NCBI GenBank assembly: GCA_964187785.1
Contig: OZ076412.1
Location: 31,744,001 to 31,808,000 of the forward strand
Source: Amphiscolops sp. MND2022
Lineage: Eukaryota
DNA: 64,000 nucleotides
Direction: 5' to 3'
A model generated the notes under the pieces. That model made no database searches. It was not told the DNA's origin and saw only the letters and a list, made by a program, of their open reading frames with translations. Below, piece by piece: positions 5,605-29,800 of the stretch (the first letter of the stretch is position 1; each line of letters opens with the position of its first letter). The position numbers and the translations under genes are program-made.

Positions 5605-6852
5605 TCAAACCTTAAACCATCATAGCACTTCAAAGCAATTCAAGGTCAAACGGCAAAAATCTCCATCAAGAGACAACCAAAATAAAATGATATGATTAGA
5701 AGTAACAAAGTAACTCACAGTTCTATGCGGATATGCAATTGACTGTTTGCATTCAGAAATACCGATTGCACGGAAAATGTTCAAAATCCACCCGATAGTT
5801 TTCAAATCCGCATAATAAGAGTTTTGAATTTTTTCCTCAATTTCACCACATTCGAAGGAACTACGTATTATCGCTTCGGATGAAGAAGTTTAGCAGCAAA
5901 ACGAATTGAAAACCCCTAATGTAGTTTATTTTCAAAGGAGGTCAACACTTAGTATCTTTCTCAAAGATAGTTCTATTTTTCTACACGGGACGCAAAATGA
6001 TTTTTCTAGTCATCTCAAAATTACACTAGTTAATTAATACAGTTCAGACGTACGCTAGGTCAGTAGATGGCTGATTAACTCCAACTGCTTTCACACGAAG
6101 CTCCGACGTGTCACATAATTCGTAACATCTATTTCGCTCGAATAGATTTACGACGCATTGAAACAAAATAGCAAGAGTGAAAAAAAAAGATAAAATAGAC
6201 GTCCTGTCTCCCGTTGGTCTAGTTTTTTCGAAACTTATATTGGACTTCTTGAATCGACGTCATATAGAAATGTATTTACTTTGGTTTTAAAATCTAAGAA
6301 GCACAAGCTAAGGTATAAAAGTTAAATTCAAACAAAGCCAAAGGAGGCCGGACACTCTCACACAGGAGCAACAAACAAAAAAAACTGGCAAAAAGTATGA
6401 TTGAACTCTACCTTTCATTTGTAGCAGCAACTTCTTGGATTTTTCGTTTTTTTTCAATATTACATTGGTACTTATGGGGGAAATGCTTAGTTTGAAGATG
6501 ATTCAGATATAACGTTCCTCGAGACTCACATGATTGAAGCTCTACTTCAGTCCGTAATTCATGTATGTCAAACATGCATTCATATATCAAATTTTCTTCT
6601 TTTCTCCACAATCAGATACCATGGATCTTCGTCATCAATCAGGTGCCATGTGTGTCATTATGTTTGGGGCAGATATAAATAGATTAGATACATTGTGAGT
6701 CAATAGATTGAGTCAATTGGTACTTAGCGGCGACCGTAACTAAGGTCTAAGGAATGAGATCTGAAGCAATTTCGTAACTAAGATCTAAAGAACTATGATC
6801 TAAAAAGCATGTACCGTAACTAAGGTCTAAATATTAAAATGAAAATAATATC

Positions 6853-8880
6853 ATGATCAACGACTTTATCAGGCAAGAATCACAGAGAAGCAATTTCCTG
6901 ATGATCGGGGATCTCAATCTTCCAAAAATAGATTGGGAATCCAACACCTCTAACACAGTAGTAGGAAGCAAGGAGAACAACTTTCTTGATGCTTTAGCTG
7001 ATTCTTACCTGACACAGCACACCAACAGACCAACACGTATCCGGGGCGACGATAAACCATCACTAGTTGTCTTAGTCATCTCAGACACATCAACACCTGT
7101 GGAAGAGATTGAACACTTACCGCCACTCGGTGATAGTGATCATGCACTACTGCAGGTGAAAGTCTCGTTCGAGGTAGCCTCTTATGTGAAGAAACGTCTC
7201 AACTTCAGAAAAGCAAACGGATAGCATGAATTGGGTCGAATGAAATAGGTCGAAAAGAATTAGGTCGACCCTTTTGGTCGAATAACTTAGGTCGAATTGA
7301 CTGAGGTCGAATTGGGTCGAATGGACTTGGGTCGAAATCAATATGTTGTCTCCCTTGAACTTGGCATTTTTCAAGGTCGACCCAAGTCCATTCGACCCAA
7401 TTCCGAAACGGTGAAGATTCGACCCATGGCACAGGAGGCCGATTCGACTCATTTCTTTCGACCCATTTCCGTTCACCCGCGATGAAATCATTCTTGAGAG
7501 GAACAACCATCCCGGATGAGCTAGATGTCAATGAGAAATGGCTTTTCCCAAAAAGCAAAATCACTGAAGCTGTGAAAAAATTCATCCCGGAATTGAGCAT
7601 TAAGTCGAACAAAAATGGACGATATACCGCTAACAGGGACATCCTGGAGCTAGTGAGAAAGAAAAAACGACTCTGGAAGAATTTTGTTAATAGCAAATCC
7701 CCCGACGATCACAAAAAGTACAAAGCAAGCAGGAATTTGTTGAGGAAAGAAACCAGAAAACTTGCCCAAGAAATGGAACAGGAAATAACAAATAACCTCA
7801 AGTCCAATCCCAAAAAATTTTGGAGTTATGTTAGCCAAAAAACAAAACGAAGAGAGACGATTCCAGCAATCAAACGAGAAGATGGAAGCTTCACACAAAC
7901 GGATTTGGAGAAAGCAGAAGAACTCTCGTTGTTTTTCAAATCCGTTTTTGTAAATGAAGGACCCGGATTCTGGCAAATAAACACCACGCACAAATGTATG
8001 GAAGATAACATAACTTTCACTGAAAAAGAGGTGCTTGAAGAAATTAATGCCCTTAATACAGCACAATCTGCTGGAGTGGACAACATCTCACCAAGGATAC
8101 TGAAAGAAATAGGGTCTGAAGAAAATGACCCTCACAACAAAGAAAGACTCCACTGAGAGACATTACTTCATGAACACAACAAAGATGTTGGAAAATGTAA
8201 GATGTGAAAAAGACTTGGGTGTTCTAACTGATCACAAATTATATTTTGACTTGCATATTGCTGAAAAAATAAAGAAGACGAATTCAATGCTTGCTATTAT
8301 CAAAAAATGTTTCATGAAATTGAACTGCCAGTCACTGAGTGTACTAATAAAGACGCTTGTCAGACCCCACTTGGAATATTGTAACCAAGCATGGCATCCA
8401 CATTTCCAAAAACACAGAACTAACCTCGAAAATGTCCAGAGACGAGCGACAAGACTCATCCCTCCTCTCGCATCTCTCCCTTATGAACAAAGATTAATGA
8501 AACTAGACCTACCCACCCTGGACTTCAGAAGGAAACGGGGTTGGATGCTTGAAGTTCACAAGATACTCAATGGAGTGTATGATAAGAGAGTCACTGGAGG
8601 GATGCTGATGGAAAATGACAGAATCACAAGAGGAAATCAAAGAAAACTTCTGGTGCAGCCATCGAGAACATCAACAAGAGGAAATTTTTTCACTGTAAGA
8701 GCAGCCAATGACTGGAATAGCCTGCCAGATGATGTCACGTCGGCAGGAACCCTTGACGTTTTTAAAGCGAAATTGGACAACACCTGGAGAAATTTGAAAT
8801 ACGAAACGACGATGGAAAGGGAACCCAAACAGCAATGAGCCAATCACCAAAGGCTTCGGCCTTAGACTGTGAAACATCTA
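6853..8880 (+). mobile_element. LINE (CR1/L2-like): APE endonuclease C-terminus, linker and RT C-terminus; RT core deleted; MITE inserted
   Basis: APE motifs IGDLNLPKIDW and LGDSDHALL; linker NPKKFWSYV and GVDNISPRILKE; C-terminal EKDLGV, LVRPHLEYC..W.P, LENVQRRAT, FFTVRAANDWNSLP. No YADD segment is present between ~8110 and ~8130. Confidence 0.9.
7218..7479. mobile_element. Foldback/MITE-like insertion built from GGTCGAA / TTCGACC units
   Basis: CGG...CCG ends with imperfect 37-bp terminal inverted repeats (27/37 matches). An exact 26-bp inverted pair lies at 7310-7335 and 7377-7402. The insertion interrupts the LINE frame at FRKAN|MKSFL. Confidence 0.8.
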
Positions 8881-9109
8881 TTCTACTCTAAATTGAACAA
8901 AAATAACGTCTTATGATTAACGTGGGGTCATGTATGGTGTATGCACGCTCGCCCTCATCGTCGCAATGATCAGCTACCACTACGATCGCTTCGCGATCTC
9001 CATTCCCGCTAGGTCTTTGCTCCTGTTCGACCTCGCTTAGCAAGATGGGAACATAAGCGGCCCCAAGGGCCCGCGGGGCACTAGATGAAATGGGAAATAC
9101 CAGAGGAAC

Positions 9110-10267
9110 TGTCATGCCCGCCAAGCATGAACGAATTAAACGAACTCTAAAATATTAATTCATACCTCAAACTCCCTAAAATACAGATCATCATGAAAGT
9201 ATATTGCAGTAATTCATTCGCCGAACAATACAGTTGAACATATAACAACTGGAACCAACAGTCATCAATACTAAATTCATTCATGTTATTGTGCGTCGTT
9301 TAGAAATCAGGACTGAAATTATCAGTCATCACAAAAGACCTTTACCGAAATATGTAGTTTAATCAAGTGCTCAATCATACATTTTCCACATATAAGACTG
9401 AAACAATCAGTCATCAGTTATAGTGATATTCCATCATTTAACCATTTTTTACAATACATGTAAAGTATTACTAGAATACTCGATCATTCATAATCAGAAC
9501 ACTTCATCCACTTGTATTAGCAATTTGTACGATGCCATTTAGCAATCAACCTCCAGTCAATAATTGATGCAGTCACCATGATGATTAGAATACGCGGTAG
9601 CAAAGCCTTAGCATAAAAGGTAATTGGTATAATTGCGTGCTAAAATGACTGGTGCTTGCGGTCATACTATATCAAACGTGATCAATTAGACACCAATTAC
9701 TACCTGCGACGACAGTAACCACCAGTCGTCAAGTGCGAATTAAAGAACAATTAGTAGAACGAACACCATTGGTTAAAAGGAAAGGTGCTAAAACGCATTT
9801 GTAATAACACCATCGGAAATCCCAAAGCCAACACAAGATTGTTAACTACTGCCGATTCAATTTCCTCCATCTCTTAAACTTAAAATCGCTGTTTCTTATT
9901 TGAATATTAAATTACTCATTTCAACTTAAAACCTCCTGACTTTTCATGGTAATTACTAGATCACAAAGTAATCGAAACAGAGAATTAAATATTGAGACAA
10001 TGGATAGATCCAGTGATAATGAAAGCGAATCGAGCTTCCCTGACATTCTTTCCAGAGATCAAATAGCAGATCTCGATTCTGACGACTTGTTGTATAGGCA
10101 ACAAAGTAATGATAACCTCAGTATCGACCGACGTTTCAACGAAATAAACAGACAAATTGGAGACCTTACCAACATAGTCCTTACATTAACCAATCAGTTT
10201 GCCTCCGTTAATGGAGAAGGGAATAGACTAAACACAGCAACTACAAGTGCTAACAGTCGTTCCGACA
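9110..10267 (+). repeat. 5' LTR (1158 bp)
   Basis: TGTCATGCCCGCC...GTTCCGACA, matching 22316-23478. I count 8 substitutions in the first ~170 nt. Confidence 0.97.
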
Positions 10268-11379
10268 TGGGGACAGGAGTCCCGAACTCACGACCTTCAG
10301 GATCTCGAATAACACCACCCAGCGGTACACCAAGGAGTGATGCAAGTATTCCGCAGATAGCAGATGTGATGACGGAAATCCACCATCTCCGCAGTACAAT
10401 GGGAGAAACCTTGACGCAACCAAAAATCCTGCAGACCCAAGTACCTCTATTCAAGGGAAATCGAGACAAATACAACGAATTCGAGCATTTATTGCTCAAC
10501 CACTTACGACCACATGCCCACAAGCTCACTGAAGAACAAAAACTCAACTACTTCCAGAGTCTTCTCAGGGATGACGCAATTGAGTTTTGGCAAACCTTAC
10601 CAATCACAACAGAAACGACACTGCGAGATATACTGACGGCATTCAAAAAAGAATACGCTAAAGAAGTACTCTCAGAAGTCTCGAGGTTCAAATTCGACCA
10701 GCTACGATACGATCCGACCACCGAGTCAATCAGTACCTTCCTCGCCAATTACAAAAAGATTGCCAAACAAGCCTACGGCGAGAAGGCACAGGAAATTGTC
10801 CAGACCTTCCTGTTTGCCAAATTACCGATCCAGCTCCAAAACGAACTGGCAATTGCAGGAAAACACAATGCCAGCATTGAGGACATCAAAACATTCGTCC
10901 AGAGAAGATGCCAATAAGCCCAGTTACTACCAAATCAACAACTCCTCCTACCGTTCAACCAGGCTATCCAGACACAAGAAGTCCCAAACAAGCCAGTTGT
11001 TCAGAAAAGAAACGAAAATGAACGACCAACAATCAAAAAGAAATTCGATGGCAATTGCAGATACTGCGCAATTTACGGGCACAAATAGTCTGAGTGCCGA
11101 AAACGACTGCGCGACGAAGCAGCGGGCAACAACAACTCACAAGCACAGAAAAAGCCCGAACAGCAAAACAACCACGCAGAAACACAACCAAAATACAATG
11201 CCAAGCTGGTCTGCCAAAGTTGCTGTTATACAGGCCACTCCGCAAAAGACTGCCGTTACAGAATACCCCAAACTTCTGCCTACGGAAGCGTGCCATACAA
11301 TAGGCAAACCACAACTGAAAACAGGGACTTCCGACGTGACTTCTGAAGAGCACACAACAACCCCTACCCAGCAAATGAA
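9946..11379 (+). pseudogene. gag: gag with two CCHC zinc knuckles; premature stops
   Basis: The frame of ORF 9946..10917 continues through TAA 10915, TAG 11086 and TGA 11344. It includes CRYCAIYGHK*SEC and CQSCCYTGHSAKDC and is in frame with pol at 11380. Confidence 0.9.
10268..10280 (+). promoter_or_regulatory. Putative primer-binding site (tRNA-Leu-like, imperfect)
   Basis: TGGGGACAGGAGT directly follows the LTR-terminal CA. It resembles the complement of tRNA-Leu 3' ends (TGGTGTCAGGAGT). Confidence 0.5.
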
Positions 11380-14300
11380 ATGAACGACCTTGCACCAGGG
11401 GACCAACAACAGCAAACCAGTGACGACTACTACCAACAGGAATTCACCGAAGCATCATCCAGCCAGCCAAAAAGCTTTCTAAAGCCACGACATCCGACCA
11501 ACTACTACGAGAACAATGTGCGCAACGTAAACAACTACTACTACACCAAAAACTACAAAAACCGGGCAACTGATCATCGGCAGGATCAGAAACCCACCAC
11601 TACAACTACTCACGACACGACTACTAATGGAGAACGTCCTCCTCACACTCTCTCCGAGACACCCAACCAGGAACTACAAATGACAGATGACAAACTACAC
11701 CCTAACGCGACTACAATTACAGACCGTGTGAAGAAAACAACAACCCGGAAAAAAGACGTGGCGATCCAGGCGTTGTCTGCAACACTCCAATTAAACAAGA
11801 AGGACAAGATGTTATATGTCCCATTGCAATTCCGGCAATATGAAAACCATGGACTCCTCGACACAGGAGCAATCAGAAGCGCAATGTCAGAAGATGAACT
11901 CAGACAAATCCTGTCCGCCCACCCAGCCGCACTTCTAGAAGAGTACCCAGCACAGGATTTCAAAGTCCAGATTGCAAACGGAAGCATCGTCCCAGTCCGG
12001 AAACAGGTACTACTTCGTTTCTTCATCGGAGGCAAGGTTTTTGAAGAAACCTTCATGATTCTCTCCACCATGGGTAACATCTTGATCGGAATGTCCTTCT
12101 TTAAAAAGTATTCAGAGACACTTGACCTTGCCAACAATGTAGTTAAATTCCCGGACATTACATTACAACTGAAACCAGAACGAGGACGGTATAAAATCCA
12201 GATGATCGAACTGCGCACAACACAGAAGACAGTGATACAACCGGACCACCAAATCATTGACCCTGTCCTAGCGGAAAAGGACCTCGGCACAATTCAGGGC
12301 ACCGTGGAAACCTTTCCTGCATTCGAAAGGAAGACACAACTACTGGTGTCCCCCGCCCTGACACAAATCACCGACATGAAAAGCCATGTCCAGATAACCA
12401 ACCTCACCTGCCATACAATTACCCTCAACCCGAACACGACAGTGGCTACCTTCAAGATAATGACTCCCAATCAAGCAAAAAACCTGCAACCGATGTCAAA
12501 CGAGCAATTGACACTAATAACCAAATACCCGGACGAAGCCAACAATGTACTAAACCAACTGTTCCAGGAACCCGGCACTGAAACCAACCGCAGATGGTAC
12601 CCAACCCCGGAGACATGTGATGACCCGTCCAAGCTGAACCGCATTGAAAGGAGGATATATGACGAAATCACTAAACTCCGTGAGGAGGAGAAACTGGACC
12701 CAACGGCAGACGACCAACAGCGCAAGGAGTTCCTTGCCAACTTCAAATGGGAAAACTCAATCCTGAATGAGCACGAACGACAACAGATTGAGAACCTCCT
12801 TGTGAAGTACAACAATGTATTCGTCAGACACCGCCTCGACATAGGCATCAATACTGACTTCAAAATCAAACTCACTCCGAAGTATGATGAACCAGTCTAC
12901 GCGCAGAGCTTACCTACACCCACCAACCTCAAAGATGACCTGCTCGTCGAATTAGCACTGATGCAAGAGTACGGGATCATCACGACGTTGCCGTACAGCA
13001 AGTATTCCTCACCAATATTTGCTCAGCGCAAACCCAATGGAAAACTTCGCATCCTCGTGGACCTGCGCAGAATCAACCACCTCTTGAAAAATGATTACAA
13101 CCAACATGATCACCCGGTCACCACCATCGCCGACGCTGCCCAGCATATGGCAGGAAAGAAGTACTTCTGCAAGCTGGACTGTTCGCAGGCGTACCACTGT
13201 TTGCAGATGGCGGACGAACAATCCATAAAGCTCCTGGCATTCAACTTCGGCCGCCGAACATTCGCTTACCTACGATTGGCACAGGGACTCAATCGATCCC
13301 TGTCGGCATTCAACAGCACAGTACGAGAATATGTTGATGCACTCGTGAAAGCGGATAAATGCGCACAATATGTCGATGACATTGGGATAGCTGCCCACAC
13401 CGTAGATGAACTACTGTCCAACATTGAAGCCGTGTTCCAACAAATCCAAAAGCAGGACTGAAACTGTCGATGTCAAAATGTGCGTTTGGCCACCCACAAA
13501 TTGATTTCCTTGGGAGAAGCATCACATCGAAGGGTGTCGCCCCACATGAAGACAAAATCGATAATTTCCTCAAAAAGATCAAATTACCCACATCAGTCAA
13601 ACCCCTCCAAAGGTACATCGGATTTGTCCAGTTCTACAGGCAGTACATACCACGCCTGGCAAAAAAACTCACCCCTCTGTACAAACTACTCCAGAAAGAC
13701 GTCAAATTCCAGCTGACCCAACAACACAAGGACACCATCTTCGAGATCAATGAAAATCTTGCTAAAGCCGCGAAACTCTCACAACGACTGCCATTACCCG
13801 ATAAACAGCTTGTTATAATGTGCGATGCCAGTGAACATGCGGCAGGATATGTCCTCCTGATAGAAGACTACACCGAAACTAACGACGGACCAATGAAGAC
13901 GTACGTTCCAGTGTCATTCGGATCCCAACTATTCACGGAGGGCCAAATGTCTCTAACAATGTATGCAAAGGAATTCCTGGCGATGAATTTCGCATTCGAC
14001 GAATTCGCACACATACTCTGGGGTGTCAAAAAACCAACAATAGTAATGACGGACAATAAAGCACTGACCCGATTCTTTCAGTCTAAACGGATTCCCCCGA
14101 AGCTATGGAATTACTGCGATCAGACGCTTCAATTTGAATTCGTACTTGCCCATGTTCCGGGAACTGAGAACCCTGCTGCAGACTACCTGTCTCGTCTTGA
14201 CATACGACCAGAGGAAAGAATCCACCTCAAACCCAACGACGAGATACCAGTCTTCCACGTCGAGATCGATCTGGCATCAAGAACACCAAAGCAGAACGAC

Positions 14301-16327
14301 GAAGAAGAAGAATACATACTTGATGATCAACAAACTACCACCACCAAACAAAATGAAACCATCAACGCCATCCTGGACCAGGTCCCCATGTGCAGCAACG
14401 AATCGAGTGGACAGTTTCTTGAGAGGATAGAAACCATCCGTCATCAAACCACACCCATCATCACAGGGCAACATGACGAGATGACGTTCACCCGATTCAG
14501 GCGAAAGCTTCATGACAACATGGTAAACCAGGTATGCTCCAATGGGGAGTTTCAAATCATCCAGGATCAACTCGTAAACCTTGACATCCAACGCATGATT
14601 AGAGTTTTGAACAAAAAGGAAACCCTTCCTAATCATGTGAACTTTGAAAGTCAGTTTTTCCAAAAACTAGTCAAAAACAAGAAAAGACTTGAAGTAGTGA
14701 ACAACGTCTTGTACAGGAACTAGTCAAAAACAAGAAAAGACTTGAAGTAGTGAACAACGTCTTGTACAGCAACTTTTTTGATGGTACAGGTAAACTTAAG
14801 TGTAAACAAATTGTCACTCCCCCTGAAACTATTCGAAAAATCATTCAATACCTGCACGATGACCCTCTGCAAGGTCACCCTGGTTGTAACAAAATGCTCC
14901 ATGAACTACGTAAAAGGTACTACTCACCAAACCTCTCTGAACTGGTACTGCAATACGTCTCGAACTGCCAGGACTGTATCCGCTCAAAACCAATCTGAAA
15001 AGCTGCAATCACACAACCACTTCAACAAATATACGACCCCTGCAACGGACCAGAAGACATACTAGAAATTGACTTTGTCGGTGAACTCCCACCTTCCAAC
15101 GGATTCACACACATACTCACTGCATGCGACTAATTTTTCTAGGTACCTCTTTGCAATACCAATCCGTAAACCGGACACAAAGTCGGTCGTGGAAGCACTC
15201 ATGCAAATCTTTACGCAACATTCGTATGTACCCGAGACAATCTTAACTGATAAGGGAACGACATTCACATCTCAACTGCTCAACTCCCTGATGGCGTCTG
15301 CCGGCATAAAAATCGAACATGCCTCTGTAAAGCACGCACAAACGATTGGGATGGTTGAACGTTCCCATCAAAAACTGAAACAAATCCTCAAAATCAACAT
15401 CTCAGCTGATTCACCACAATGGCACAAATACGTCAACTTGGCCGTAATGGCCCATAACACAACCTACCACCAGGCTATTCGATGCACACCCACTGAAGTT
15501 TTCCACGGACGTGTTCCGTTCAATGCCCTTGACGTCAAATTTGGCAATCCATTATTTGAACAACGTAACACTACTGACGTCACTGGAATACTAGATAACA
15601 TGAACAAAAAATTCCAACAAACACATGACAACATAATCGAAGCCTTTCACAAACACAAGACTTCACCTCTGAAAGTAAATGATTTCACCTTTCTGCTAAA
15701 CAAAAGACTGTCTCAGCAATCTGAAAAATTCCATTCAAGGAATTCAAGTGGGAAGGCCCATACAAAGTGGTCAAAGTCTTGTCAAATTCAAATTACGTCA
15801 TACGTAAGATTGGCACTCTTCGCACTCAATGCGTTCACAGAATGAGGCTTCGCCCATTCACGCCAAACGCACCAATCGAAGACATTTAAGACAATGCATC
15901 ACAATATTTCGAAGATCCCGACGCCCTCAACGAACAGGAGTTATTTGACAATCACCTACCTGATCATGTCCATGAACAACCACAACAAGTAATACCTGAA
16001 CAATCGAACTTCGAAGAGTTACACGCAGACCATGGAATGATCTACTACGAACGGCAAAACATAGAATCTGATCAAAACATCTCCATACCTGAAAGCCAAG
16101 CTGAAACACAAGAACCACAACCGGATAACGCTAGCATGAACAATTCTGACACAAACAACAATGAACACCAAACAAATGACCGCCCTCCAGCGACATCACG
16201 ACACACCATGTCTCGATACGGGCTCAGACACAATCCAAAACCTACTACGTACCCTGATTTTTTAATGCACGAATTACATGGAACGCCTTCACTTCAACAG
16301 TTACTTCTGAAAAACAGAAACCTATAA
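11380..16327 (+). pseudogene. pol: pol (protease, RT, RNase H, integrase) with frameshifts and stops
   Basis: Protease LLDTGA; RT SSPIF..RK..GKLR..VDLR, KLDCSQAY, YVDD; RNase H CDAS, KEFLA, TDNKAL; integrase H-H-C-C (LHDDPLQGHPG...CQDC), EIDFVG, ILTDKG, MVERSH. Lesions: frameshift ~13450, 53-bp duplication 14665-14770, stop 14996, frameshift ~15130. Confidence 0.95.
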
Positions 16328-16929
16328 AACACCCATTCATAATTGCACTTCTCAAACCAACGACTGCTAACAGCAGTCATAAACAGTCTCTCTCATTGAC
16401 CGTAAAGGTAATTGTTTTACAATTACGCCCCAATATACCAGTATTCAACAAACAATATTGAAATTTCCGAACAACCTAGCAAACAATCCAATTAACACGA
16501 TTAAATGACCATCCACTTCCGTCGACACTGTTTGAGCTGTCTAATTACTTAGCATCAACCACTAAGCAAGACAAACAAACGGTAACGCAACGACTGCAAA
16601 CGCCAATCATTCCAACACTCGCGGTCCGGATGCACACGTAGCGCGCAAAAGTTTGAACGATAATTTATTCAATTCGCACCAAATTTACCACACCCACAAT
16701 CGAAACGAAGAAATTCGCTGAGAAAACTGTCGAAACACAACTAACGAAACGTGAACGAAAACAACGTTCCCTACAAACGCAACAAACTAACAGTGACGAT
16801 CTGCTGCCTGGTAAACGTTAGGACAACACAACCAATACCCCACCCATTTCGACCTAAACTCATAGTGCTGACTGTGTGGGAGCGTCGTCAGAAAGCGTGC
16901 TTGTGTGGTCGGTCGTCAACATACAGATG

Positions 16930-18090
16930 AAGGTTGCTCTTTAGCAACTGGATTCAGTGTTAGTTTTGTATAGGTGGTTCCGACGGGAATTCACTTTTTC
17001 CAATGCACTGAACATCAAAAATAAAAAACCAACCAATAGACTATAACACAACGCCGGTAAGAACAAGAACTTACCAAATCCAGAAAACAATGATTGCCCG
17101 GCCCCTTAAACGTAACAAAGTATGCGAAGGCTTCGCCTCGCTTGGGAAAAGATTAAGGAGTACGCGGCCCCAATCTCTGCTTAGTATTAAAATCCACACA
17201 CGCCCATAGTTCTCAGTCCAACAACTTCCTACCACCGCAGTTAACATTCCAAAACAACTAGCGATCTTGGCGACACACATCACGTATGATGACGTCCCAG
17301 GACACACATCAACGATGATGACGTCGAGTACACAGACCGCTACTTGTAATATATTGAAACACACTAAAATACATGCAAAGTAGTCCCTAAAAGTTATAAC
17401 ATGAATCTTACATGCACATCAAAAAAGTCACGTATCAAGCCAAGGATACACTCCTTGGGAATTCAGTCATTGAGATGAGCGAGCTGCTCAGTCACGTACC
17501 TTGCTATGCAGTGCTAAGGACTGGAAAGCCATGGTCTAAATGCCTCGTTACCATTCTCGAGCCTTCACTAACAACGAACATGAAGACCTGGCTCTCGAGT
17601 ACCATGCGCAGCACAGCCTGGCGCGTGAACAAATTTTTATGTTGGTGGTTACCGCGGTGACCACCATAACCAATATGAACTCCCTCACAAAATTCACTAA
17701 AGATGACATAACAATTAGAGCGTAAGATTAAATGAAATCATAGCGAAGTATGGGTAACCCCATACACACACTTAAGAATGACAAAGTGAGTTCAGCATCA
17801 TGCATAAACGTACATACAAAAAACACTAGAAGTAAGCAAAAGTGCCATACAACTTTAGGTTCCATGTACTACGACAAAAAACCGTTCCTAGACTAGATTA
17901 GACCAACGAAGAAAAACGACGAGTACATGCAGTCATCATGAACACTACAACGTAACAAAAAATTTCTTTTTCTTTTGACACATGCAGAACAAGTAAAAAT
18001 CCCCTTGTAACGTCCTAAACGCCCAGTACTGGGGAAAAAACAAAAGAACGTACTACGGTGGTGGAAACCACCAAACTCAATTACCAAATG
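16930..18090 (-). pseudogene. Second antisense spliced cargo gene, unknown product (Cys/His-rich N-terminal part)
   Basis: Exon 17696-17500 (donor GTACGT) and exon 17342-17075 (donor GTAAGT) join in phase 1 across a 157-nt intron, with one internal TAG. An upstream CSAC...RCSVHDDC segment lies in ORF 17893..18087. Confidence 0.5.
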
Positions 18091-18251
18091 AGCTGAATAC
18101 TAATAAACTACAGTATTGATATAAGGCAAAAAGGTAATACACATAATTCCAAGAACTATGTAAATATCAGCGAAATAAATATCAGAGAAATAAATATCAG
18201 CGAACACAAGAAAATCTGGGAAAAAGTCTGCTTTAGTTTGAAAAGTTTCTA

Positions 18252-21242
18252 CTAATACTCCTTCGAGTATGAGGATCCACCTTCGTTGCTACTTTCTTCA
18301 ATAGTAAATGAACGCCTGCTCGTCTGAACTGCACCTTCACTGAAATTTGCCAAAGTTGTTCTTCCCTTCTTATCGGGACGCCCACCGGTTCTTTGGCCTC
18401 GATTGCCTCCTCGCTCTGATGACCTAACACTCGTGGCCTTCCGTTTCGATCCCGATGTGCTCGGGGCTGAAGTCGACAACACAACCTCAGTCTGCAGTCG
18501 TGGCACCTGCGCTCCAGAACGTTTCCCTTTCGTTGGACTTCGTCGGTTGGCAACAGGACTGGCTTCCATCGATCTCAATTGGTCACAAACAGTTGACCTG
18601 TATTCATCAACAACAGGACGAGACGGAAGACCCCCAGTTGACTCAAGAACGGCAATACAACGCCCGAATAGCTCATCAACCCCTCATTTGACTAGCTGGT
18701 CCCACGGGATAGCCCGATCATCGTCGTTTAATCGGGAAGCGTTTGTAGTCTGTGGAACTACAATGACAAACAAAGCCAATCATCGAAAGACGCGAATGTC
18801 CGCCAAATCCAGTCGCCATCCAGCTCCTTACAAGATGCAAACTGGATAACATGATGCGCTTCTCCAATACTGTGCTCCCGACATCGTAAAAATCAGCACG
18901 GTAAACATCGTTTAGCATTCCGACGAAAAGAATCTCGATGACGTCACGCAACTCTTGGCACCGGTCCCATGAGGGGTACGACAGCCACAAAGACACAGCA
19001 TCTTCGATGACCAGCACCGTTGCGACACTCGATTCCCATCGGCGTTTGAAATAACCAGCTGCTTCTCGATACTGCTGAACGATAACAGCTCCATTCTCTC
19101 CACTACACAAGTCTCCGAAACTGAGAACGGACAACGTGCCAACTAGAATGTCTGTTAAGCGATCCATGGAACAAACTGAATGGCACCCGGATCCAAGGGC
19201 AACAAGCTAAGGTGTCTCACCTACCCCTGATCAAAATCGGCAACACACGCCTCATACACAGAGCGAAGGAAGTTCTGCACCTCTTTGTAGAAGAAAGGCT
19301 TCTGGCTGCTGATGTCAAAGCGAAAATACTGTCCGAACAAGGCCTGATAACGTGCCTTGTCAACAGGGACTCTCTCGCCAATCCTCAATTTCAGTACAGC
19401 TGAGACCTCGAACTCTGGTGGTATCGTTTCTGGGTCAACCACCATTGATAGCAGAACACGCAGAAAGGCTGCCAGCTCTCTCTCAAACCAGAGATTACTG
19501 TCCCTACCAACGCTACACAATCGAGGGCACTTCGCAACAACTGAAACACAAAATCGGTAATCAACCAATGCGCCAACAACTCACACACAACCACTTAGTA
19601 CTCAAGATGTCAATATCAAATCGACCACAGGATATACAAGAACCATCATAGATACAACCAAACACAAGCATCAATCAAAAACCGATACTGACCAGTCTCC
19701 GCTAAGAATTTCAGAACTGCAAATCGGGGTCGTGTCATCGCGTCGTTGAACACCTGGGTCTCCATGCTAGCGATGTTAAGCGTCTCAGCCACTGTGTTAG
19801 AACGATGGACCCCAAAGTACGCCCCCAGGTCATCCCAGCGCTCGACCAACTCCGTGATCAGCGAAGACAGCTCCTGAAATCGATTGGCACCACCACGCAC
19901 GAACTGAAACAGTAATACCAAAAAAGTTAAACTAACGAACAGCACAGCAGCAAGCACTACACTCCCTAATACTCAACTCCTGAAACAGTGAAGTAGACCT
20001 ACACCTCCGAAACCCCCCATCCTCTAAGAAAGAAACAGACCAATCAATAAAAACAAGATGAACCAACCTCACGTAATCCAGGCATACTATCAAAGGCCGA
20101 GTCTTCAATCACTGCTGCCAACCGGAAGCGGAAGTACTCAAGGATGCTAAAAGGTTCCAGTCCACTCGACTCTTCAATAAACTTCCGTCGCAACAGATCA
20201 GTCAGCCACTCAGTGTCGAAGCGACGGGTCACAAGCGGCATCGTTGGGTGTGCGACACTGGCCAGAGCACGCCCCAAACGAAAATTATCGCCCACACTCA
20301 CGGCCGCCAGACCACCGTATGACTCCACACAGGACAGCAGAGACAACACGACCTTGAGGAGAGAGCGTTCACACTGGCTCCCGCCCGGGATCACGGCTAG
20401 CACGACAACTTTGACTGACAGGCCATCGAAAATGTGACAATCCACTCTCCTCATGGCCCCATCGACGCGAACGTGTAGCCTAAAGCGCACTCCCGAAGGT
20501 CGCCCAGCTTCTCAACTACAAACGGATACAATCCGTACAGGACGAGACTCTGAAACAATAGACAACACATGATACACATTACCAATCACGACATCTTCCA
20601 ACACCAACACACAAACCAGTAAAACACGACACAACTCCAAGTTCTTAAAGAAACGCACGACAGTTATGAAGAAAACAAACAAAAAATAGGTATTACCTGA
20701 CACTTCGGGTATGACAGTGCTCGTTCCACAAACTCGACCTCGCCCCGCATACTGCCTGACAATGACTCCACAAAGCGGGTAACACTGGCAAAGTCAGGCA
20801 GCTCAACGAAGCCATTGATGAAGCAGCACAGCCAGAGATATGCGGCACTTGTCTCAGTTAGCTTTGGCTTCGCACCAGCGGCCTCCTCTTCGATTTCAAT
20901 GGCCACACGCTCTTCCACCGTCAACTTGAATTCGGACTCCAGAATGATGGGGGGCTCCGACATTCTTTCTGCTCGAATTCTCCGGTCCTCTTCTAATGAC
21001 ACGGGCCTACAGGACTTGTCCAATAGCGGCCTATTAGACATGATGCGGAAACGTTGCTCAAGGCGAGTGTGTTCCCTCCCCTTCCAGTGGTCCCACAAAT
21101 TGTGTAACCCCCGGCCAGCAATACTGAGATCCACACGACACAGACGACATCTAGCATAGCCGTCTATAACACGTTTGTTTCTCGGGAAACCAACAAAGGT
21201 CTCCACGACGCCTGAGACAAAAAACGACGGCTTCAGCGTCAT
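18252..21242 (-). pseudogene. Antisense, intron-containing cargo gene: BED-type zinc finger plus hAT-transposase-like RNase H fold and C-terminal dimerisation-like region
   Basis: Exons 21242-20697, 20549-20068, 19903-19693 and 19540-~18252. Introns of 147, 164 and 152 nt all end in GTTTCAG and join in phase (0, 0, 1). Motifs: C-x2-C-x16-H-x5-H (21149-21069), YT.RVDG, VSVGDN, ELVERWDDLGAYF, LLPLDP, AVSLW...LRDVIEILF. A few frameshifts and stops are present. Confidence 0.7.
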
Positions 21243-21421
21243 GATTGCACGTTTTCGCCCTATGAACACACGAAACACCCAGTGAAATAAACTGCTCTAG
21301 AACCTTAAAAACCTTCAAAAAAAATAAAAACCAAAAACAAAAACTGTGTTTGTCCTTAGTCCTTAGTTATATACAATTCTTCAAAATTACCACTAAAACC
21401 CCCCCACATGATCTTGTGAGA

Positions 21422-21720
21422 TTAATTACCAGGCTTCGAAGTCGACGCAACGCCAGAAGAGGATGGAACGCCAGATGGAACTACACTCCGTTCACCCAAC
21501 TCTGAAGGCGGCACGTCCGAATCCACACCTGTCCGGCGACTCTCCAATCCAGCTACACTGCCAGCAACAGACGGCGGGCGTGGCAGAACATCACCCACAC
21601 AAGGAATGACTGAAGGCTGACCAAGTTCCTGAATAGCGCCCTTCAATTTCCCAAGGAACTCAAGTATAACTGGACATTCACGGAACCATACTCTGGACTT
21701 AATCCGAAGGATATCAAATG
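21422..21720 (-). CDS. Third antisense cargo ORF/exon, unknown (hydrophobic helical N-part, Ser/Pro/Gly-rich tail)
   Basis: The frame of ORF 21422..21646 stays open up to an AG acceptor at 21721-21722 (FDILRIKSRVWFRECPVILEFLGKLKGAIQELG...). Confidence 0.35.
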
Positions 21721-22302
21721 CTAATTACAGTAAGCAGAAAGAACGCAGTCAAGTTTTCCCAGCCAAAAAAACCCACATATTCCCTCCTGAATTTAACAGC
21801 CCGATCAATACCCAAAAAATACAGGACTCACTGGGAAAAAAAACAAAAAATGGACCTATTTTTATCATTGTGGAAGAATGAGCAAAGCCAACGGTTGACA
21901 AACGAAAGTGGATAAGTACAAGTTCAAACAGGATCAAATTCAATTTCAAACGCAATAACTCAAGCAACTGACTCACACTACAACAACGCAACAAATCAAT
22001 CAACTGCCGATGATCGATGAAAAGTTGCTTAAACAAACATTACACCCAAAGCGCACTACACGGATGACGTGGCTGTCAAACCGTTTCTATATATAGACTT
22101 CAACTTCCGACTGCCTACTATTTGCCTGCCTCACCTTGTCCATTCACGCTTCCGAAAGTTTTCAGCCGCTTCATTGCCACCCACACGTTTCTCTCTAACT
22201 TGCACGCCACCTCAGCCACCGTTCAATACCCAACCCAACCACCTGCTACCACTCAACTCAGCCGTTCACCTTTTCCATTACCCCTACAGCTTGCTCTCTC
22301 TC

Positions 22303-22315
22303 AAAAAGGGGGGAA
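22303..22315 (+). promoter_or_regulatory. Polypurine tract
   Basis: AAAAAGGGGGGAA abuts the TG of the 3' LTR. Confidence 0.9.
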
Positions 22316-23478
22316 TGTCATGCCCGCCAAGCATGAAGGAATTAAACGAACTCTAAAATATTAATTCATACTTCAAACTCCCTAACATACAGATCATCAT
22401 GAAAATATATTGCAGTAATTTATTCGCCGAACAAAACAGTTGAACATATAACAACTGGAACCAACAGTAATCATTACTAAATTCATTCATGTTATTGTGC
22501 GTCGTTTAGAAATCAGGACTGAAATTATCAGTCATCACAAAAGACATTTACCGAAATATGTAGTTTAACCAAGTGCTCAATCATACATTTTCCACATATA
22601 AGACTGAAACAATCAGTCATCAGTTATAGTGATATTCCATCATTTAACCATTTTTTACGTTACATGTAAAGTATTACTAGAATACTCGATCATTCATAAT
22701 CATAACACTTCATCCACTTGTATCAGCAATTTGTACGATGCCATTTAGCAATCAACCTCCAGCTCCAGTCAATAATTGATGCAGTCACCATGATGATTAG
22801 AATACGCGGTGGTAAGGCCTTAGCATAAAAGGTAATTGGTATAATTGCGTGCTAAAATGACTGGTGCTTGCGGTCATACTATATCAAACGTGATCAATTA
22901 GACACCAATTACTACCTGCGACGACAGTAACCACCAGTTGTCAAGTGCGAATTAAAGAACAATTAGTAGAACGAACACCTTTGGTTAAAAGGAAAGGTGC
23001 TAAAACGCATTTGTAATAACACCATCGGAAAACCCAAAACAAACACAAGATTGTTAACTACTGCCGATTCAAGTTCCTCCATCTCTTAAACTTAAAATTG
23101 CTGATTCTTATTTGAATATTAAATTACTCATTTCAACTCAAAACCTCCTGACTTTTCATGGTAACTACTAGATCACAAAGTAATCGAAACAGAGAATTAA
23201 ATATTGAGACAATGGATAGATCCAGTGATAATGAAAGCGAATCGAGCTTCCCTGACATTCTTTCCAGAGATCAAATAGCAGATCTCAATTCTGACGACTT
23301 GTTGTATAGGCAACCAAGTAATGATAACCTCAGTATCGACCCACGTTTCAACGAAATAAACAGACAAATTGGAGACCTTACAACATAGTCTTTACATTAA
23401 CCAATCAGTTTGCCTCCGTTAATGGAGAAGGGAATAGACTAAACACAGCAACTACAAGTGCTAACAGTCGTTCCGACA
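22316..23478 (+). repeat. 3' LTR (1163 bp)
   Basis: Copy of the 5' LTR with a 6-nt CTCCAG duplication and a 1-nt deletion in the gag-homologous part (ORF 23158..23388). Confidence 0.97.
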
Positions 23479-23483
23479 GGAAC

Positions 23484-23770
23484 GTTTTATACTTAGTTCG
23501 AAATTCGAACACATTGATTCGAACTTTTTCCTGTTTGTGGAAAATTCGAACTTAGTCCATTCGAAATTAAAATTCGAACTTATGCGTTCGAACTTATTAC
23601 CGTGCCCTGTTCGACCTCTGTCCTTTTGACCAGAAAAATTCGACCTATTTACAGCCACCCCTAAGCAATTAGATCAAAGGCGTACACTCCGAATCGACGT
23701 TGTTCTTCGACTCTAAAGATTCGACGTTAGAAATTCGGAGTGTCAAAATTCGACGCTATTATGGGACGCT
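23484..23770. repeat. TTCGAA/TTCGAC-rich MITE-like relic
   Basis: About ten TTCGAA motifs at 23497-23600, plus the inverted pair ACACTCCGAAT / ATTCGGAGTGT. Confidence 0.45.
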
Positions 23771-23899
23771 GTTATCAAACACACTTGTGGTCAGAAAGAT
23801 GTAGATATGCAAAGATTTTACCATTTGAAGCAAAACAAAAGAAGAAGAATTCAATTTGTACTCCCAAAAGTAACCAGCGAAACATTGCGACTAAACTTT

Positions 23900-26800
23900 T
23901 GGTATCGAGCACACTATAGGGCTAATTTAAGCCACAAAATCACAACAGCTTACAATCTGCTCGTCCAAAACAATTCTTTGGCAATATCCACATTCAGCTC
24001 GTCAGCTGGGGCACCACCACAGGCACTAATTCTAAAATTAGCCGAAAAGACTCATTTTGCGGTTTTTGCTACATCAGATAGCATACAGTGAAATCCAGAA
24101 AAACCGGGTGTTAGCACCAAAAAGACTCTAATTTCAGAGGTTTTTGTTGTCTCTGGGGTCTTTGATGGCGGCTGGCCTTGTGTTTTTTTCAATCTTTGCT
24201 CTTTGTTGTCGAAGTACCTGCCAATTTCGTTGAAACAGCGGAAAGAGCGATCACAAGCTCTGTGCAACGTCAAACATCGAATTAGAATTGTTCAAAATTT
24301 TCTGAACATGTTCAAAACCCAAATTCCAATAACGCCTGATTGTGCTGTCTCAGAGGAGCCCGTTACATCACTTACCGGACGTTAGGCAGGACGTCTCTGT
24401 CATGCGGGGTTGTGGGCATTGAAGACATCTCCACATCAACTTTGCAATCTTCTCGGAGTTGAAACTGGTGGTTTTGTGGCGGTGTTGTGGCACAATCAGC
24501 TTTTGCTGTTGCATTGAATATTTGTTTCTTGCCATCTTTTGAGCCTGCATTATCCATTGGCTGCTTTGACTGGAGCAAGCCCTTGGGCTGGAAAAGGATC
24601 ACTCAAAAATGCACCTTCAAACAAATCAAAATCATAATTTTATAAATCAATCCAATAGCATCATTTGGTTGGCACAAATTTTTTGCACAAATTTCGAATG
24701 GGAATTTGATGGCACTGTGATTTGTTTTGTAGTTTTGGAATGTTATTGGAGCCCTGAGACTCTTTGGCGCAATTTCTCTCAAAAACACGTGTCGGTGTTG
24801 TGGCCCACATTACAGTGCATAGACAAGCTTTTTCTTGCCATTTTGCGGAAACCACGACAAGGATTTGCGGAATCCATGACACGCTTACAGAATTCCAATC
24901 TCTTTGATGTTTGCGGAATCTAAGAAAAGCCCTTCCTTTGATGTTGCGGAAAGTAAGAAAATCTTACTTTCCGCAAATTCAAATCTCGGATTCCACGGAA
25001 AAATTTAATGAGCCAATTAACCGTCTTGGACTCAATTATCTATCTTAGATTCCGCAATTGAAACTGGTCCTCAATTTAATCTCTTGGATTCCGCAAAAAA
25101 TTCTAGTCTCCTCAAATTACACCCTAGCCTATTCTGAGAATCCTAGATCCCTGGATCTCCTTAAAAAACCTAAGATTGGTAGCAAATAGTATTTTCGAGA
25201 GTTTTAATGTGATTATGTTGGTATTGAAGTTCTTTTTTGAAGAACTTTTGAAATGATGGAAACCCTTTATTGGGACCAAATAGTTTTAGTGTGATTATGT
25301 TTGTATTGAAGTTCTTTTTATGAAGAACTTTTGAAATTATGGAAACCCTTGATTGGGACCAAATAGTTTTTTACGGTACATAAATGATTTAAATGTTTTT
25401 TGGAATATTTTTGACTTTATGTAGGTAGTATTTATCTGTAGATATCCACATAAATTTATCATTATTGAATTTGAATTAAATTCATTAGTTACAACACATT
25501 TTGATCAAAGAGTTGAAGAAAGTCCAATTTATCTTTATCGACACTGGATTAGGATCAGGAGCAAGCCCTTGGGCTGGAAAACGATCACTCAAAAATGCAC
25601 CTTCAAACAAATCAAAATCATAATTTTATAATTCAATCAAACAGCATCATTTGGTTGGCACAAGTTTGCTGCACAAATTTCGAATGGGATCTTGAAGGCA
25701 CTGTGATTTGTTTTGTAGTTTAAGAATGATATTGGAGCTCTGAGACTCTGGCGCAATTTCTCTTAAAAACTTCTTTTCCTCGCCAGTAAAACCTCACTTT
25801 GCAGAGCAGTTGAAAGTTGTTTTTGGTAAAACTTCTTTTCAGCGGAAAGACCACTGTTTAAAAGGAACACAAACGGTTTCTGATATTTCTTGTTCAAAGT
25901 TCGTCTAAGTTCGGGCAGCACGCACTAATGTGCAGCTCCAAACCAATACAAAGTTCAGTAGCATCTGTTAAGGAGTGTATCAGAGGCAAATTACGAACTG
26001 CTCGCGAGAAATAGAACTGAGGCAAATATATACAAGATTCTGCATTTGAAAATTTTTGAAACTCATGAGCTCCATTAAACGAATCGTTTCGTAGAAAAGC
26101 CACTGATTCGAACAAAAATTGACATTGAATCTGCATGGAAAGGAACTATAAAGAAGACAAACTAAAAAAGAAACTATGAATTAAAGCACCAACAGAATTA
26201 TCGTGGCAAAGACCACGTTTCTGGCCAATTTGGCACTATTGAGAGTTTTTTGTTTTTATTTTGTTTTTTTTTAGGCTTCCTTGATAACCACGAGCACGTT
26301 AATTTAGTTTATGTCTAGTAAAAAAACAAAAATGTTTTGGTACCAAGTTATGGTTGCAACCATCAGAGTCAAGTGAAAATACTAAGCGGTCAGGAGTTCA
26401 TTACTTTATGTAGCGACAATTTCCATCGGTGGTCAACATGGATCGTGGAGAATTAGAGTATTATCTCTCCATGGGACTCCCCGGACCTTAATCATTGAGC
26501 ACCGCTCTTCAATGATTTCGTTTGGATGTCGACAATTTTGACATTAATTTGTCTCAAATATGGGATATTTGGAGGGCGGCCATGCTGATGACCCATCGGG
26601 CGGTCAGACAATGCTGAATGAAGAGATTTTGTAAATAGGCGTGGCGGACAACCACGTCTGTGACCAACGGGTCGAGTTTTGGCTGTACCACCAGGCAAGC
26701 CTGTTGTGAGGACTTGTGGGTCTGTCTGAAAGACGCTTTGATTCTCTAGATCTTAGTAACGAAAAATGACATTTAGATCAAAGTTCTTTGGATGTTACAG

Positions 26801-29800
26801 AAGTGCGTTTTGATCCTATTCCTTACATCGTAGTTTGTGCCCGTACTTAGCGTCTCTTGATTCTGTTTACGACTTGAATCTTTTCGATTACTCGATAAAA
26901 GTCGCGAGTCATACCAGTTTTTTTCCTTGAGCAGGTCGTCTTTTAGCAGGTCTTGAAAGCCGTCAAAGTGTATAGAATGCATCCTGAAGTTTTTTCTGTA
27001 TCACATACACATAGACGGGAGGTCATCCGCCAAATCGTGTATTGAAAATCATTTAAATTACAATGGTTAGTCAACATTTCTATAGGTAATTTGATTGATG
27101 AACCTTTTGGGAAAACAGAAATACCAGTATTTCTAGATGGATAATCTGGCCAAATGTTAACAAGACTCTTGTTCCGTACATCCTTTCTAAAGACTGAGCA
27201 TACGTAATTGGTGTTACGGAAACATCCCGTCTCTCGTGCCTCTGTCGCTGAAGTTGGAGGAACTCATGGTATGGGTATTTGCCCGGGACAGGCGCCCATG
27301 ACCATGAGCCATTTTGCTTCCAGAGATAAAAACTGTCCCGTCAGAAGGCGGTCTCGCCTCATGAAGAGAACTCGCGTGGCTGATCCAGTCTTTATTTGGT
27401 GTCAGTAACGTGAATTAACCTTTCCTTCGAAACTACCGCTTAGACAGCCATTAAAAACGCTGCAAGAAGAAATATGAATGTAAATTTCGCTATTCACGGT
27501 GACTTGGGTAATTAGATCTGAAATCGTCAAGGTAGCCATAAAATCACAACAGTTTACAATCTGCTCGTCCACAACAAATATTTAGCAATATCCACATTCA
27601 GCTCGTAAGCTTGGGCACGATCACAGGCACTAATTCTAAAATTAGCCAAGAAGACTCTTTTTGCGGTTTTCACTACATAAGGTAGCATTCAGTGAAATCC
27701 AGAAAAACCGGGTGTTAGCACCAAAGAAGACTCTAATTTCAGAGGTTTTTGCTGTCTCTGCGGTCTTTAATGGCGACTGATTTGTGTTTTTTTCAATCTT
27801 TGTTTTTTGTTGTGGAAGTACTTGCCAATTTCGTTGAAACAGCGGAAAAAGCAATCACATGCTCTGTGCAACGTCAAACATCGAATTAGAATTGTTCAAA
27901 AATTTTCTGAACATGTTCAAATCCCAAATTCCAATAACGCCTGATTCCGCTGTCTCAGAGGGTGCCGTTACATCACTTACCGGACCTTAGGCAGGACGTC
28001 TCTGTCATGCGGGGTCGTTGGTATTGAAGACATCTCCACATAAACTTTGCAATCTACTGGGAGCTGAAACTAGTGGTTTTGTGGCGGTGTTGTGGCACAA
28101 TCAGCTTTTGCTGTTGCATTGAATATTTGTTTCTTGCCATCTTTTGAGCCTGCATTATCCATTGGCTGCTTTGACTGGAGCAAGCCCTTGGGCTGGAAAA
28201 GGATCACTCAAAAATGCACCTTCAAACAAATCAAAATCATAATTTCATAAATCAATCCAATAGCATCATTTGGTTGGCACAAATTTTTTGCACAAATTTC
28301 GAATGGGAATTTGATGGCACTGTGATTTGTTTTGTAGTTTTGGAATGTTATTGGAGCCCTGAGACTCTTTGGCGCAATTTCTCTCAAAAACTTCTTTTCC
28401 TCGCCAGTAAAACTTCACTTTGCAGAGCAGTTAAAAGTTGTTTTCGGTAAAACTTCTTTTCAGCGAAAAGACCACTGTTCAAAACGAACACAAACGGTTT
28501 CTGATATTTCTTGTTCAAAGTTTAGCTAGGTTCGAGCAGCACGCACTGATGTGCAGCTCCATACCAATCCAAAGTTCAGTAGCATCTGTTGAGGAGTGTA
28601 TCGGAGGCAAATTACGAACTGCTCGCGAGAAATAGAACTGAGGCAAAGATATACAAGATTCTGCATTCAAAATTTTTGGAGCTCGAATCGTCCCGTAGAA
28701 AAGCCACTGAATCAAACGAAAATTGACATAGAGTCTCCATGGAGTGGAACTATAAAGACGACAAACTAAAAAAGAAACTATGAAGTAAAGCACCAACAGA
28801 ATTATCGTGACAAAGACCTTTTTTCTGGCCAATTTGGCACTATTGAGAATTTTTTTGTTTTTTTATTTTTTTTCAGGCTTCATTGATAGCCACGAGCACG
28901 TTAATTTATTTTATGTCTAGTAAAAACAAAAATGTTTTGGTACCAAGTTCTGGTTGCAACCATCAGAGTCAAGTGAAAATACTATGCGGTCAGGAGTTCA
29001 TTACTTTAGGTAGTGACAATTTCCATGGTGGTCAACATGGATCGTGGAGAATCAGAGTATTATCTCTCCATGGGACTCCCCGGACCTTAATCATTGAGCA
29101 CCGCTCTTCAATGATTTTGTTTGGATATCGACAATTTTCACATTAGTTTGTCTCAAATATGGGATTTTTGGAAGGCAGCCATGCTGATGACCCTTCGGGC
29201 GGTCAGACAATGCTAAATGAAGAGATTTTGTCAATGAGCGTGGCGATCGACCACGTCTGTGATCAACGGGTCGAGTTTTGGCTGTACCACCAGGCAAGCG
29301 TGTTGTGAGGACTTGTGGGTCTGTCTGAAAGACGCGTAGACAATGCCTGGCAGTAAATAATGGCTGATATGTTTGTTCCAATAGAGTTGACAATAACTGA
29401 GAGGTTGATAGTAAGGATTTTGTTCCAGGGGAGCGAGAGGTGTTGGTCAAAATCAATGGACTCGTCATTGGATATTCTTCAAAGAAGTTTGGTGTTGGTG
29501 CTTTCAAGGTCTCAGCTTTCAACACAAAATTTAGTTAGGACACTCGTTTGGGTGTCTGTTGCAAAGCCGTAATTTGGAGTTGCGGTTGCCCCTTCTCCCC
29601 CTTTTGCAGAAGAAGCGGTGGATAATGTCGATGTGACATTGCCAAAATGTGACAGGCTATGCCAAGATGCACCTTTTAGATGTAACCATGGAGTTGAGCG
29701 TTCTAGAACAACAGAGGTAGGTTCTCTGTTGAAGTCGTTTGCAGTGGCCATTTTTCCAGCTCGCTTGAATGCCAACAAGTCATCAAAAAACACATCAGCA

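Follow-up and report, generated by a model that had tools for sequence, protein, structure and literature searches.

In a 64,000-nucleotide stretch of the genome of Amphiscolops sp. MND2022 (GenBank assembly GCA_964187785.1, contig OZ076412.1, positions 31,744,001 to 31,808,000 of the forward strand, hereafter the window), a decayed copy of a Ty3/Gypsy long terminal repeat (LTR) retrotransposon of 14,369 nt (window positions 9110-23478) carries, between pol and the polypurine tract (PPT), minus-strand reading frames that very probably form one real multi-exon gene, whose product carries a BED zinc finger. In the explanation proposed here, which as a whole is given an even chance, this five-exon antisense gene is likely a cargo of the element family, likely derived from a hAT-type transposase whose catalytic residues were lost, and would encode a DNA-binding regulator. 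Antisense extra open reading frames (ORFs) are known from LTR elements of plants and fungi; one with several introns and a BED/hAT-like product in an animal is new, and no BED/hAT-like antisense gene in an LTR element was found in the literature searched, most subscription papers and supplements lying outside it.

The element and its spliced antisense gene

The boundaries of the element had been proposed by a sequence-only reading, an annotation made from the DNA letters and their ORFs, and were borne out: both LTRs (TG...CA), the target-site duplication (TSD) on both flanks and the PPT were recovered (Table 1). The LTR pair differs by 31 substitutions and 2 indels (Kimura two-parameter distance 0.027, that is 2.7% divergence), and the alignment confirms the 8 substitutions counted by that reading within the first 170 nt. 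On the plus strand, the domains identified with Pfam follow the order gag, zinc knuckle, protease, reverse transcriptase (RT), RNase H and integrase, which is the Ty3/Gypsy order. This copy is dead, with stops in gag-pol at 10915, 11086, 11344, 14996 and 15887; its reading frame also shifts near 13452 and 15728, at about 15100-15136 and through a 53-bp tandem duplication at 14665-14774. Between pol and the PPT, no Pfam env family was detected in ten ORFs (six on the minus strand at 18.2-21.3 kb, three others and one on the plus strand), in agreement with the earlier statement that no env-like ORF lies there; the longest plus-strand frame in 16.3-22.3 kb, of 173 codons, overlaps an antisense exon and has no Pfam match.

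The pol stop codon lies at 16325-16327 and the interval from there to the PPT measures 5,975 nt, both as previously read from the sequence (end at 16327, about 6 kb), and within it the minus strand holds coding DNA directed away from the 3' LTR. Five coding exons extend from about 21720 to 18252, with 936 codons counted (about 940), and the phases of the four introns (1, 0, 0, 1) agree across the joined exons. The introns have a G+C content of 32-41% vs 48-56% for the exon segments, and in a leave-one-out codon model, which is biased towards stop-free frames, the annotated frame ranked first in all seven exon segments of at least 150 nt. The earlier description of this cargo as spliced and pointing away from the 3' LTR is supported. 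Its division into at least two or three genes was not sustained at 21.7-18.25 kb, where the ORFs join in phase into one five-exon gene and homologues read across two of the supposed gene boundaries.

The splice sites could be compared with 96 database relatives of the BED exon (E ≤ 0.001, 28-92% identical), and the protein belongs to a large and diverged family. These relatives are database proteins called by gene finders that are blind to introns and hence run past splice sites; they provide independent support for the positions of those sites. At the intron-2 donor, 23 of 98 relatives (the misaligned P0010 being retained among the 23) extend past the exon, with a mean identity of 0.51 over the last 15 exon residues vs 0.13 on the intron side, and a valine (GTN) directly follows the exon in 19 of the 23. 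At the intron-1 acceptor, identity is 0.44 on the exon side vs 0.07 on the intron side for the 20 relatives that reach it. P0108 belongs to a cluster of 15 near-identical proteins from many long contigs. It continues in frame across intron 2, with 84%, 28% and 66% identity in exon, intron and exon respectively, and its similarity stops at the intron-3 donor. Further downstream, P0304 is unbroken across 19445-18742, P0132 also reads through and P0133 continues to 18633, so that the stops and frameshifts of this copy (two and three respectively, Table 1) are recognised as damage. Exon 4, intron 4 and the last 125 codons or so are predicted without homologue support. An intron first guessed at about 19222-19122 was dropped because P0132 and P0304 read through it, and an ATG at 21242 is not taken as the start, since K stands there in close relatives and an acceptor lies just upstream. 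Three distant relatives (P0090, P0085 and P0123) lack intron 1 and P0090 also lacks intron 2, the position of intron 3 being apparently common; from these comparisons, introns appear to have been gained or lost within the family.

That the relevant product might be the antisense RNA, as a double-stranded or small-RNA source tuning the element, with the protein secondary, is a very improbable alternative. An RNA-level role has been proposed for plant antisense ORFs (PMC7264820; statements taken from cited papers refer, here and below, to parts of those papers), and multi-exon non-coding antisense transcripts are reported from the 3' LTR of Arabidopsis Copia elements (bioRxiv 10.1101/2024.04.02.587720). 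Here, however, conservation tracks the protein-coding exons and falls in the introns, and the C2H2 ligands of the finger are kept.

A multi-gene antisense cassette, in which another spliced gene (about 18.1-16.9 kb) and possibly a short ORF (22039-21749) accompany the BED gene, would be compatible with the proposed explanation and is judged unlikely. Some 1.9 kb are left past the stop of the BED gene, with GC-richer exon-like blocks near 17680-17456, 17380-17081 and 17005-16781, two sites resembling donors (17499 and 17074), a strong acceptor (18029) and open frames of 115 and 96 codons. Set against these are block phases that do not join without extra breaks, weak coding scores, a T-rich composition like that of introns over most of the stretch and the lack of any Pfam match in 18.1-16.9 kb, where no homologue search was made. 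A separate observation is that the strong acceptor is followed (17900-18030, minus strand) by a short frame with the pattern C-x2-C-x10-C-x2-H-x2-C, possibly a small zinc-binding exon.

A BED finger protein with hAT resemblance

The antisense protein carries a BED zinc finger. Its C-x2-C-x16-H-x5-H pattern is present in the window and the complete C2H2 pattern in 27 of 97 relatives, most of which are fragments, Pfam zf-BED matches the cargo finger at E 0.07-0.08, and Atlas, a language-model search, places the BED exon among BED clusters at 0.90-0.94. For the remainder of the protein, the relative P0090 was the most informative, since it aligns across exons 2 and 3 (76 identities over model positions 2-347). 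The best Atlas match of P0090 (0.95) is an unnamed cluster; its family-bearing matches, at 0.87-0.93, are DUF4371, FAM200-ZBED5 RNase-like, DUF659 and ZBED1 clusters, and all of the best 10 belong to one clan, of hAT type. In the AlphaFold model of P0090, the finger region has a predicted local distance difference test score (pLDDT) of 84-96, and after it come helices, then three strands in succession and a further helix, at a pLDDT of about 50. An RNase H fold is expected to begin in this order, with three strands and a helix. A hAT ancestry extending beyond the BED finger is therefore somewhat favoured, and the protein likely works like a domesticated hAT/BED protein. An alignment by hand, with no significant alignment as anchor, puts R at the first catalytic position in this copy and P0108, and E in P0090; the non-acidic residue suggests an inactive enzyme.

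Several results weigh against this ancestry. The zf-BED scores fall below the curated cut-off, the Atlas shared-feature counts of the family-bearing matches are 141-167 (less than the 170 typical of same-family matches) and no Pfam hAT domain was found in the cargo proteins. With the P0090 model, whose post-finger pLDDT is about 50, no Foldseek match reached E ≤ 0.001, the high-ranking integrases and Hermes lying at E 0.2-0.6 (Hermes ninth, at E 0.56, below integrases), and VIA-align over a set of 48,161 chains gave none at Z ≥ 8. An hhalign comparison of the family with P0092, the sole hAT transposase available for it, aligned the BED finger only, the remainder being no better than 5 shuffles. 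Moreover, fold searches of the P0090 model in PDB and BFVD returned nothing significant, a HMMER search of the cargo profiles against PDB gave no match at E ≤ 10, and the hAT dimerisation domain (PF05699) had no match in the window fragments or in P0130-P0133, all of these being partial and diverged sequences. The C-terminal model has a pLDDT of 41. Consequently, the hAT resemblance of the body comes solely from the language-model search, and alignment and fold searches gave no confirmation.

This also bears on the idea that the gene is family cargo with another role, such as tethering of the integration complex or nuclear import and targeting through the BED finger, or that its body is not hAT-derived at all, which is considered improbable. 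Neither profile nor fold ties the body to hAT, the basic stretches at its two ends might serve as nuclear localisation signals, and nuclear-import and targeting roles have been proposed for plant antisense ORFs (PMC7264820). On the other hand, the intronless relative P0090 gives consistently hAT-type Atlas matches, and it is not evident how an antisense gene transcribed on its own would get its product into the particle.

Probable integral cargo, proposed origin and comparison with known systems

The cargo has 2 stops and 3 frameshifts vs 1.6 stops and 2.4 indels expected from LTR divergence, and gag-pol 5 stops and 4 frame changes vs 3.6 and 5.4 expected. The cargo load fits the LTR age, so that at the time of insertion this copy probably still held an undamaged gene. 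At fourfold sites, the cargo coding strand has 58% T+G (n=488) and gag-pol 64% A+C (n=846), three other transposable-element (TE) sets from the window also being A+C-biased (overall range 58-65%). The silent-site bias of the cargo thus mirrors that of gag-pol, which fits a long antisense residence and is supportive, not diagnostic. An insertion nested in the element with its own TSD, which the sequence-only reading had set beforehand as a refutation of its claim, was looked for in hAT form: none of 33 candidate pairs of 12-nt terminal inverted repeats (TIRs) was flanked by an 8-bp TSD when up to 2 mismatches were tolerated. Owing to the lack of such a pair, the damage matching the LTR age and the strand bias mirroring gag-pol, the antisense gene is, with good probability, integral family cargo and not a nested insertion.

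Other observations count against that conclusion. T+G bias at silent sites is common in cellular genes too, and the 5' end of the antisense gene is only putative. A second locus was not found in JGI metagenomes, IMG/VR or GTDB genomes, so that the linkage of cargo and pol is known from one locus. When the source contigs of 30 cargo and 63 close-pol records were matched by size, from partial records (15 per cluster), 0 matched exactly and 1 within 100 nt; about 4 matches are expected if the P0108 family were paired with the 46-member P0135 cluster. This null result speaks against a pairing of the P0108 family with the P0135 or P0137 clusters. Near-equal contig sizes shared with distant pol proteins (278350/278351 and 375673/375667) were not counted as evidence.

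A passenger also has to be weighed, namely an independent hAT-like transposon or a fragment of a host BED gene nested in this copy or in a small sub-lineage and having no role for the element. In its favour are the single locus read, the absence of cargo-pol linkage in the size matching of contigs and the existence of relatives down to about 30% identity with differing introns (P0090, P0085, P0123), some of them perhaps outside LTR elements. The missing TSDs of the TIR candidates, a lesion load equal to that of gag-pol and the mirrored silent-site bias stand against it; in addition, the hand-aligned catalytic position is non-acidic and yet near-identical copies occur on many contigs, which would require another mover. 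A passenger is accordingly regarded as quite improbable.

Family cargo remaining the preferred reading, its origin can be outlined as follows. A hAT-like transposon would have inserted head-to-head, at the DNA level, between pol and the PPT of an ancestral element; an intron-bearing antisense gene points to capture at this level, since capture at the RNA level would yield an intronless sense ORF. The captured transposon would then have lost its ends and its catalysis, leaving a nuclear DNA-binding protein. The genomic RNA would read the introns backwards and could not splice them, so that they would be copied intact through retrotransposition. Antisense-intron retrotransposition cassettes rest on the same logic of an unspliced intron. 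Antisense transcription may be driven by a promoter of the gene itself beside the PPT or by the 3' LTR, and the protein may bind LTR or internal DNA and promote expression of the element or counter its silencing. Such a regulator role, the most probable of those considered, is suggested by the examples of VANC and of antisense regulators in retroviruses and is given odds that are evenly balanced. More tentative is the broader proposal that an animal Gypsy lineage domesticated an entire intron-bearing hAT gene in antisense and kept it across many sub-families as a self-encoded, sequence-specific factor for transcription or against silencing, which we rate as possible and somewhat doubtful. If true, it would be a case of one transposon class domesticating another, and of an extra antisense ORF whose origin from a TE can be traced.

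Close architectural parallels are found in plants. Antisense ORFs after pol define the Retand elements, in which the region from pol to the 3' LTR measures 2.9-6.6 kb and the internal region 7.4-12.9 kb (PMC11963269), and they are also found in Grande, RIRE2 and fungal Boty (PMC7264820, PMC8365987). As in Retand and Grande, the element has an extended stretch between pol and the 3' LTR (6.0 kb), an internal size within range and an antisense ORF for a predicted DNA-binding protein. Unlike them, it has an animal host, a BED finger instead of TRP28 (PF04195, which Pfam did not find in the antisense ORFs), four introns and a resemblance to a class of DNA-transposon proteins. For plant antisense ORFs, no similarity to proteins of other TEs or of cells is reported, a point against a nested-TE origin (PMC7264820, PMC11963269). 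Gene23 of Grande is transcribed from an internal promoter (PMC7264820); here, a TATA-like box is the candidate antisense promoter. The word intron is absent from the main text of the Retand paper (PMC11963269), and a search for spliced antisense transcripts has been called for (PMC7264820). Boty/BcGypsy1 of Botrytis also has an antisense gene, brtn, between pol and the 3' LTR (PMC8365987, PMC7264820); Boty is fungal, in contrast to the animal element described here with its product of about 940 residues and a BED finger.

Among proteins, the antisense product is most comparable to hAT transposases and domesticated BED derivatives (ZBED1, ZBED5/FAM200, DUF4371 and CGGBP1-like), sharing an N-terminal C2H2 BED finger, a helical region, three strands and a helix, an Atlas similarity of 0.87-0.94 and a similar total length. 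It differs from them in that no DDE triad, dimerisation domain, TIRs or 8-bp TSD were detected and in its position antisense within an LTR element instead of at a host locus. Burro of planarians and Ogre of plants are likewise oversized Gypsy elements with extra coding capacity, but they reach 16-30+ kb vs 14.4 kb here, Burro has its extra domains in the sense polyprotein, and Ogre LTRs measure 1.9-6.5 kb vs 1.16 kb here (PMC6431247). The term giant used in the sequence-only reading was overstated, the internal region of 12.0 kb being within the Retand range and below the 20-kb internal region that is the threshold for giant TEs (PMC6431247). LTR elements of bdelloid rotifers are also from an animal and have a non-env cargo after pol (ORF3); their ORF3s are esterases, exonucleases or membrane proteins, unlike the gene described here, and no antisense or intron-bearing ORF3 is described in the parts of that paper covered (PMC5408684). 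Nor is such an antisense gene described in the parts covered of PMC12477816, PMC8220671, PMC9911081 and bioRxiv 10.1101/2024.04.02.587720.

Where antisense ORFs between pol and the 3' LTR come from and what they do are named as open questions (PMC7264820, PMC11963269), and four introns, a recognisable DNA-binding finger, a probable hAT ancestry and an animal element family with hundreds of database copies make both testable. There is also a warning for annotation, as such exons pass for several short unrelated ORFs or for a host ZBED gene.

Further features of the element and its surroundings

Pol belongs to a large family that includes intact members: among long database proteins, P0134 is 96% identical and its cluster has 289 members, and other pol clusters related at 67-81% have from 1 to 1,482 members each. 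In a quick RT tree of 110 rows, consisting of database proteins without clade names and with no named Gypsy reference, the window RT falls inside a 7-row clade (SH-aLRT support 99). A search of Rfam over 9000-23600 gave no match at E ≤ 1.

A side observation concerns the start of gag, whose ATG at 10000 sits within the LTR, so that 89 codons are LTR-encoded and also repeated in the 3' LTR, and the site resembling a primer-binding site (PBS) consists of gag codons. No such layout was found in a literature search for gag starting inside an LTR. The best self-priming complement to the PBS-like site in the LTR was 8/13, which does not support that idea, and no tRNA genes were found in the window, leaving no local tRNA to match the site against.

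Table 1. Coordinates of the element, its antisense gene and candidate features (window positions)
Feature	Position	Strand	Remarks
Left TSD, GGAAC	9105-9109	+	5 bp
5' LTR	9110-10267	+	1158 nt, TG...CA; last 268 nt are gag codons 1-89
gag-pol	10000-16327	+	Retrotrans_gag, zinc knuckle, protease, RT, RNase H, integrase; 5 stops and 4 frame changes
PBS-like site	10268-10280	+	starts TGG; adjoins 5' LTR; within gag coding sequence
Possible second degraded antisense gene or long 3' untranslated region	16900-18100	-	candidate, unproven
Antisense last coding exon	18252-19540	-	about 430 codons; helical region, then low-complexity basic tail; stops 19223 and 18686; frameshifts near 19173 and 18739
Antisense intron 4	19541-19692	-	152 nt, GT-AG, phase 1; sequence-only prediction
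Antisense exon 4	19693-19903	-	70 codons; predicted from sequence, no homologue searched for
Antisense intron 3	19904-20067	-	164 nt, GT-AG, phase 0; donor position common to P0108 and P0004
Antisense exon 3	20068-20549	-	three strands and helix, resembling start of RNase H fold; frameshift near 20495
Antisense intron 2	20550-20696	-	147 nt, GT-AG, phase 0; donor conserved across family
Antisense exon 2	20697-21259	-	basic RKR patch, BED finger C-x2-C-x16-H-x5-H (21149-21069), helical region
Antisense intron 1	21260-21429	-	170 nt, GT-AG, phase 1
Antisense exon 1 (first identified)	21430-21720	-	short helix and S/P/G/V-rich linker; 5' end putative; KPG 3' end common to P0003
Possible 5' intron	21831-21976	-	146 nt, GTGAGT...CCCAG; alternatively part of 96-codon open frame 22039-21749
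TATA-like box TATATATA	22088-22095	-	consensus match only; candidate internal antisense promoter about 210 nt from PPT
PPT AAAAAGGGGGGAA	22303-22315	+	13 nt, directly adjoins 3' LTR
3' LTR	22316-23478	+	1163 nt, TG...CA
Right TSD, GGAAC	23479-23483	+	

In the rest of the window, a nuclear hormone receptor DNA-binding exon lies at 5182-5604 on the minus strand (Pfam zf-C4, E 7e-22), which marks the host as an animal, and the element may be situated in an intron of that gene or upstream of it. A long interspersed nuclear element (LINE) relic with an endonuclease, an RT C-terminus and an internal rearrangement is found directly to the left of the LTR element (6838-8838), and another LINE relic at 35904-36649 on the minus strand. 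To the right of the element, a cluster of interspersed repeats of 0.2-1.2 kb occupies 23817-35085; they are 85-94% identical (25558-26736 and 28177-29335 being one such pair) and might be old LTRs or non-autonomous elements. Two more heavily decayed Gypsy-like pol relics are present at 44466-48844 and 62612-63952, and a satellite at 53000-59700 consists of about 10 units of about 694 nt alternating as a 1387-nt higher-order repeat.

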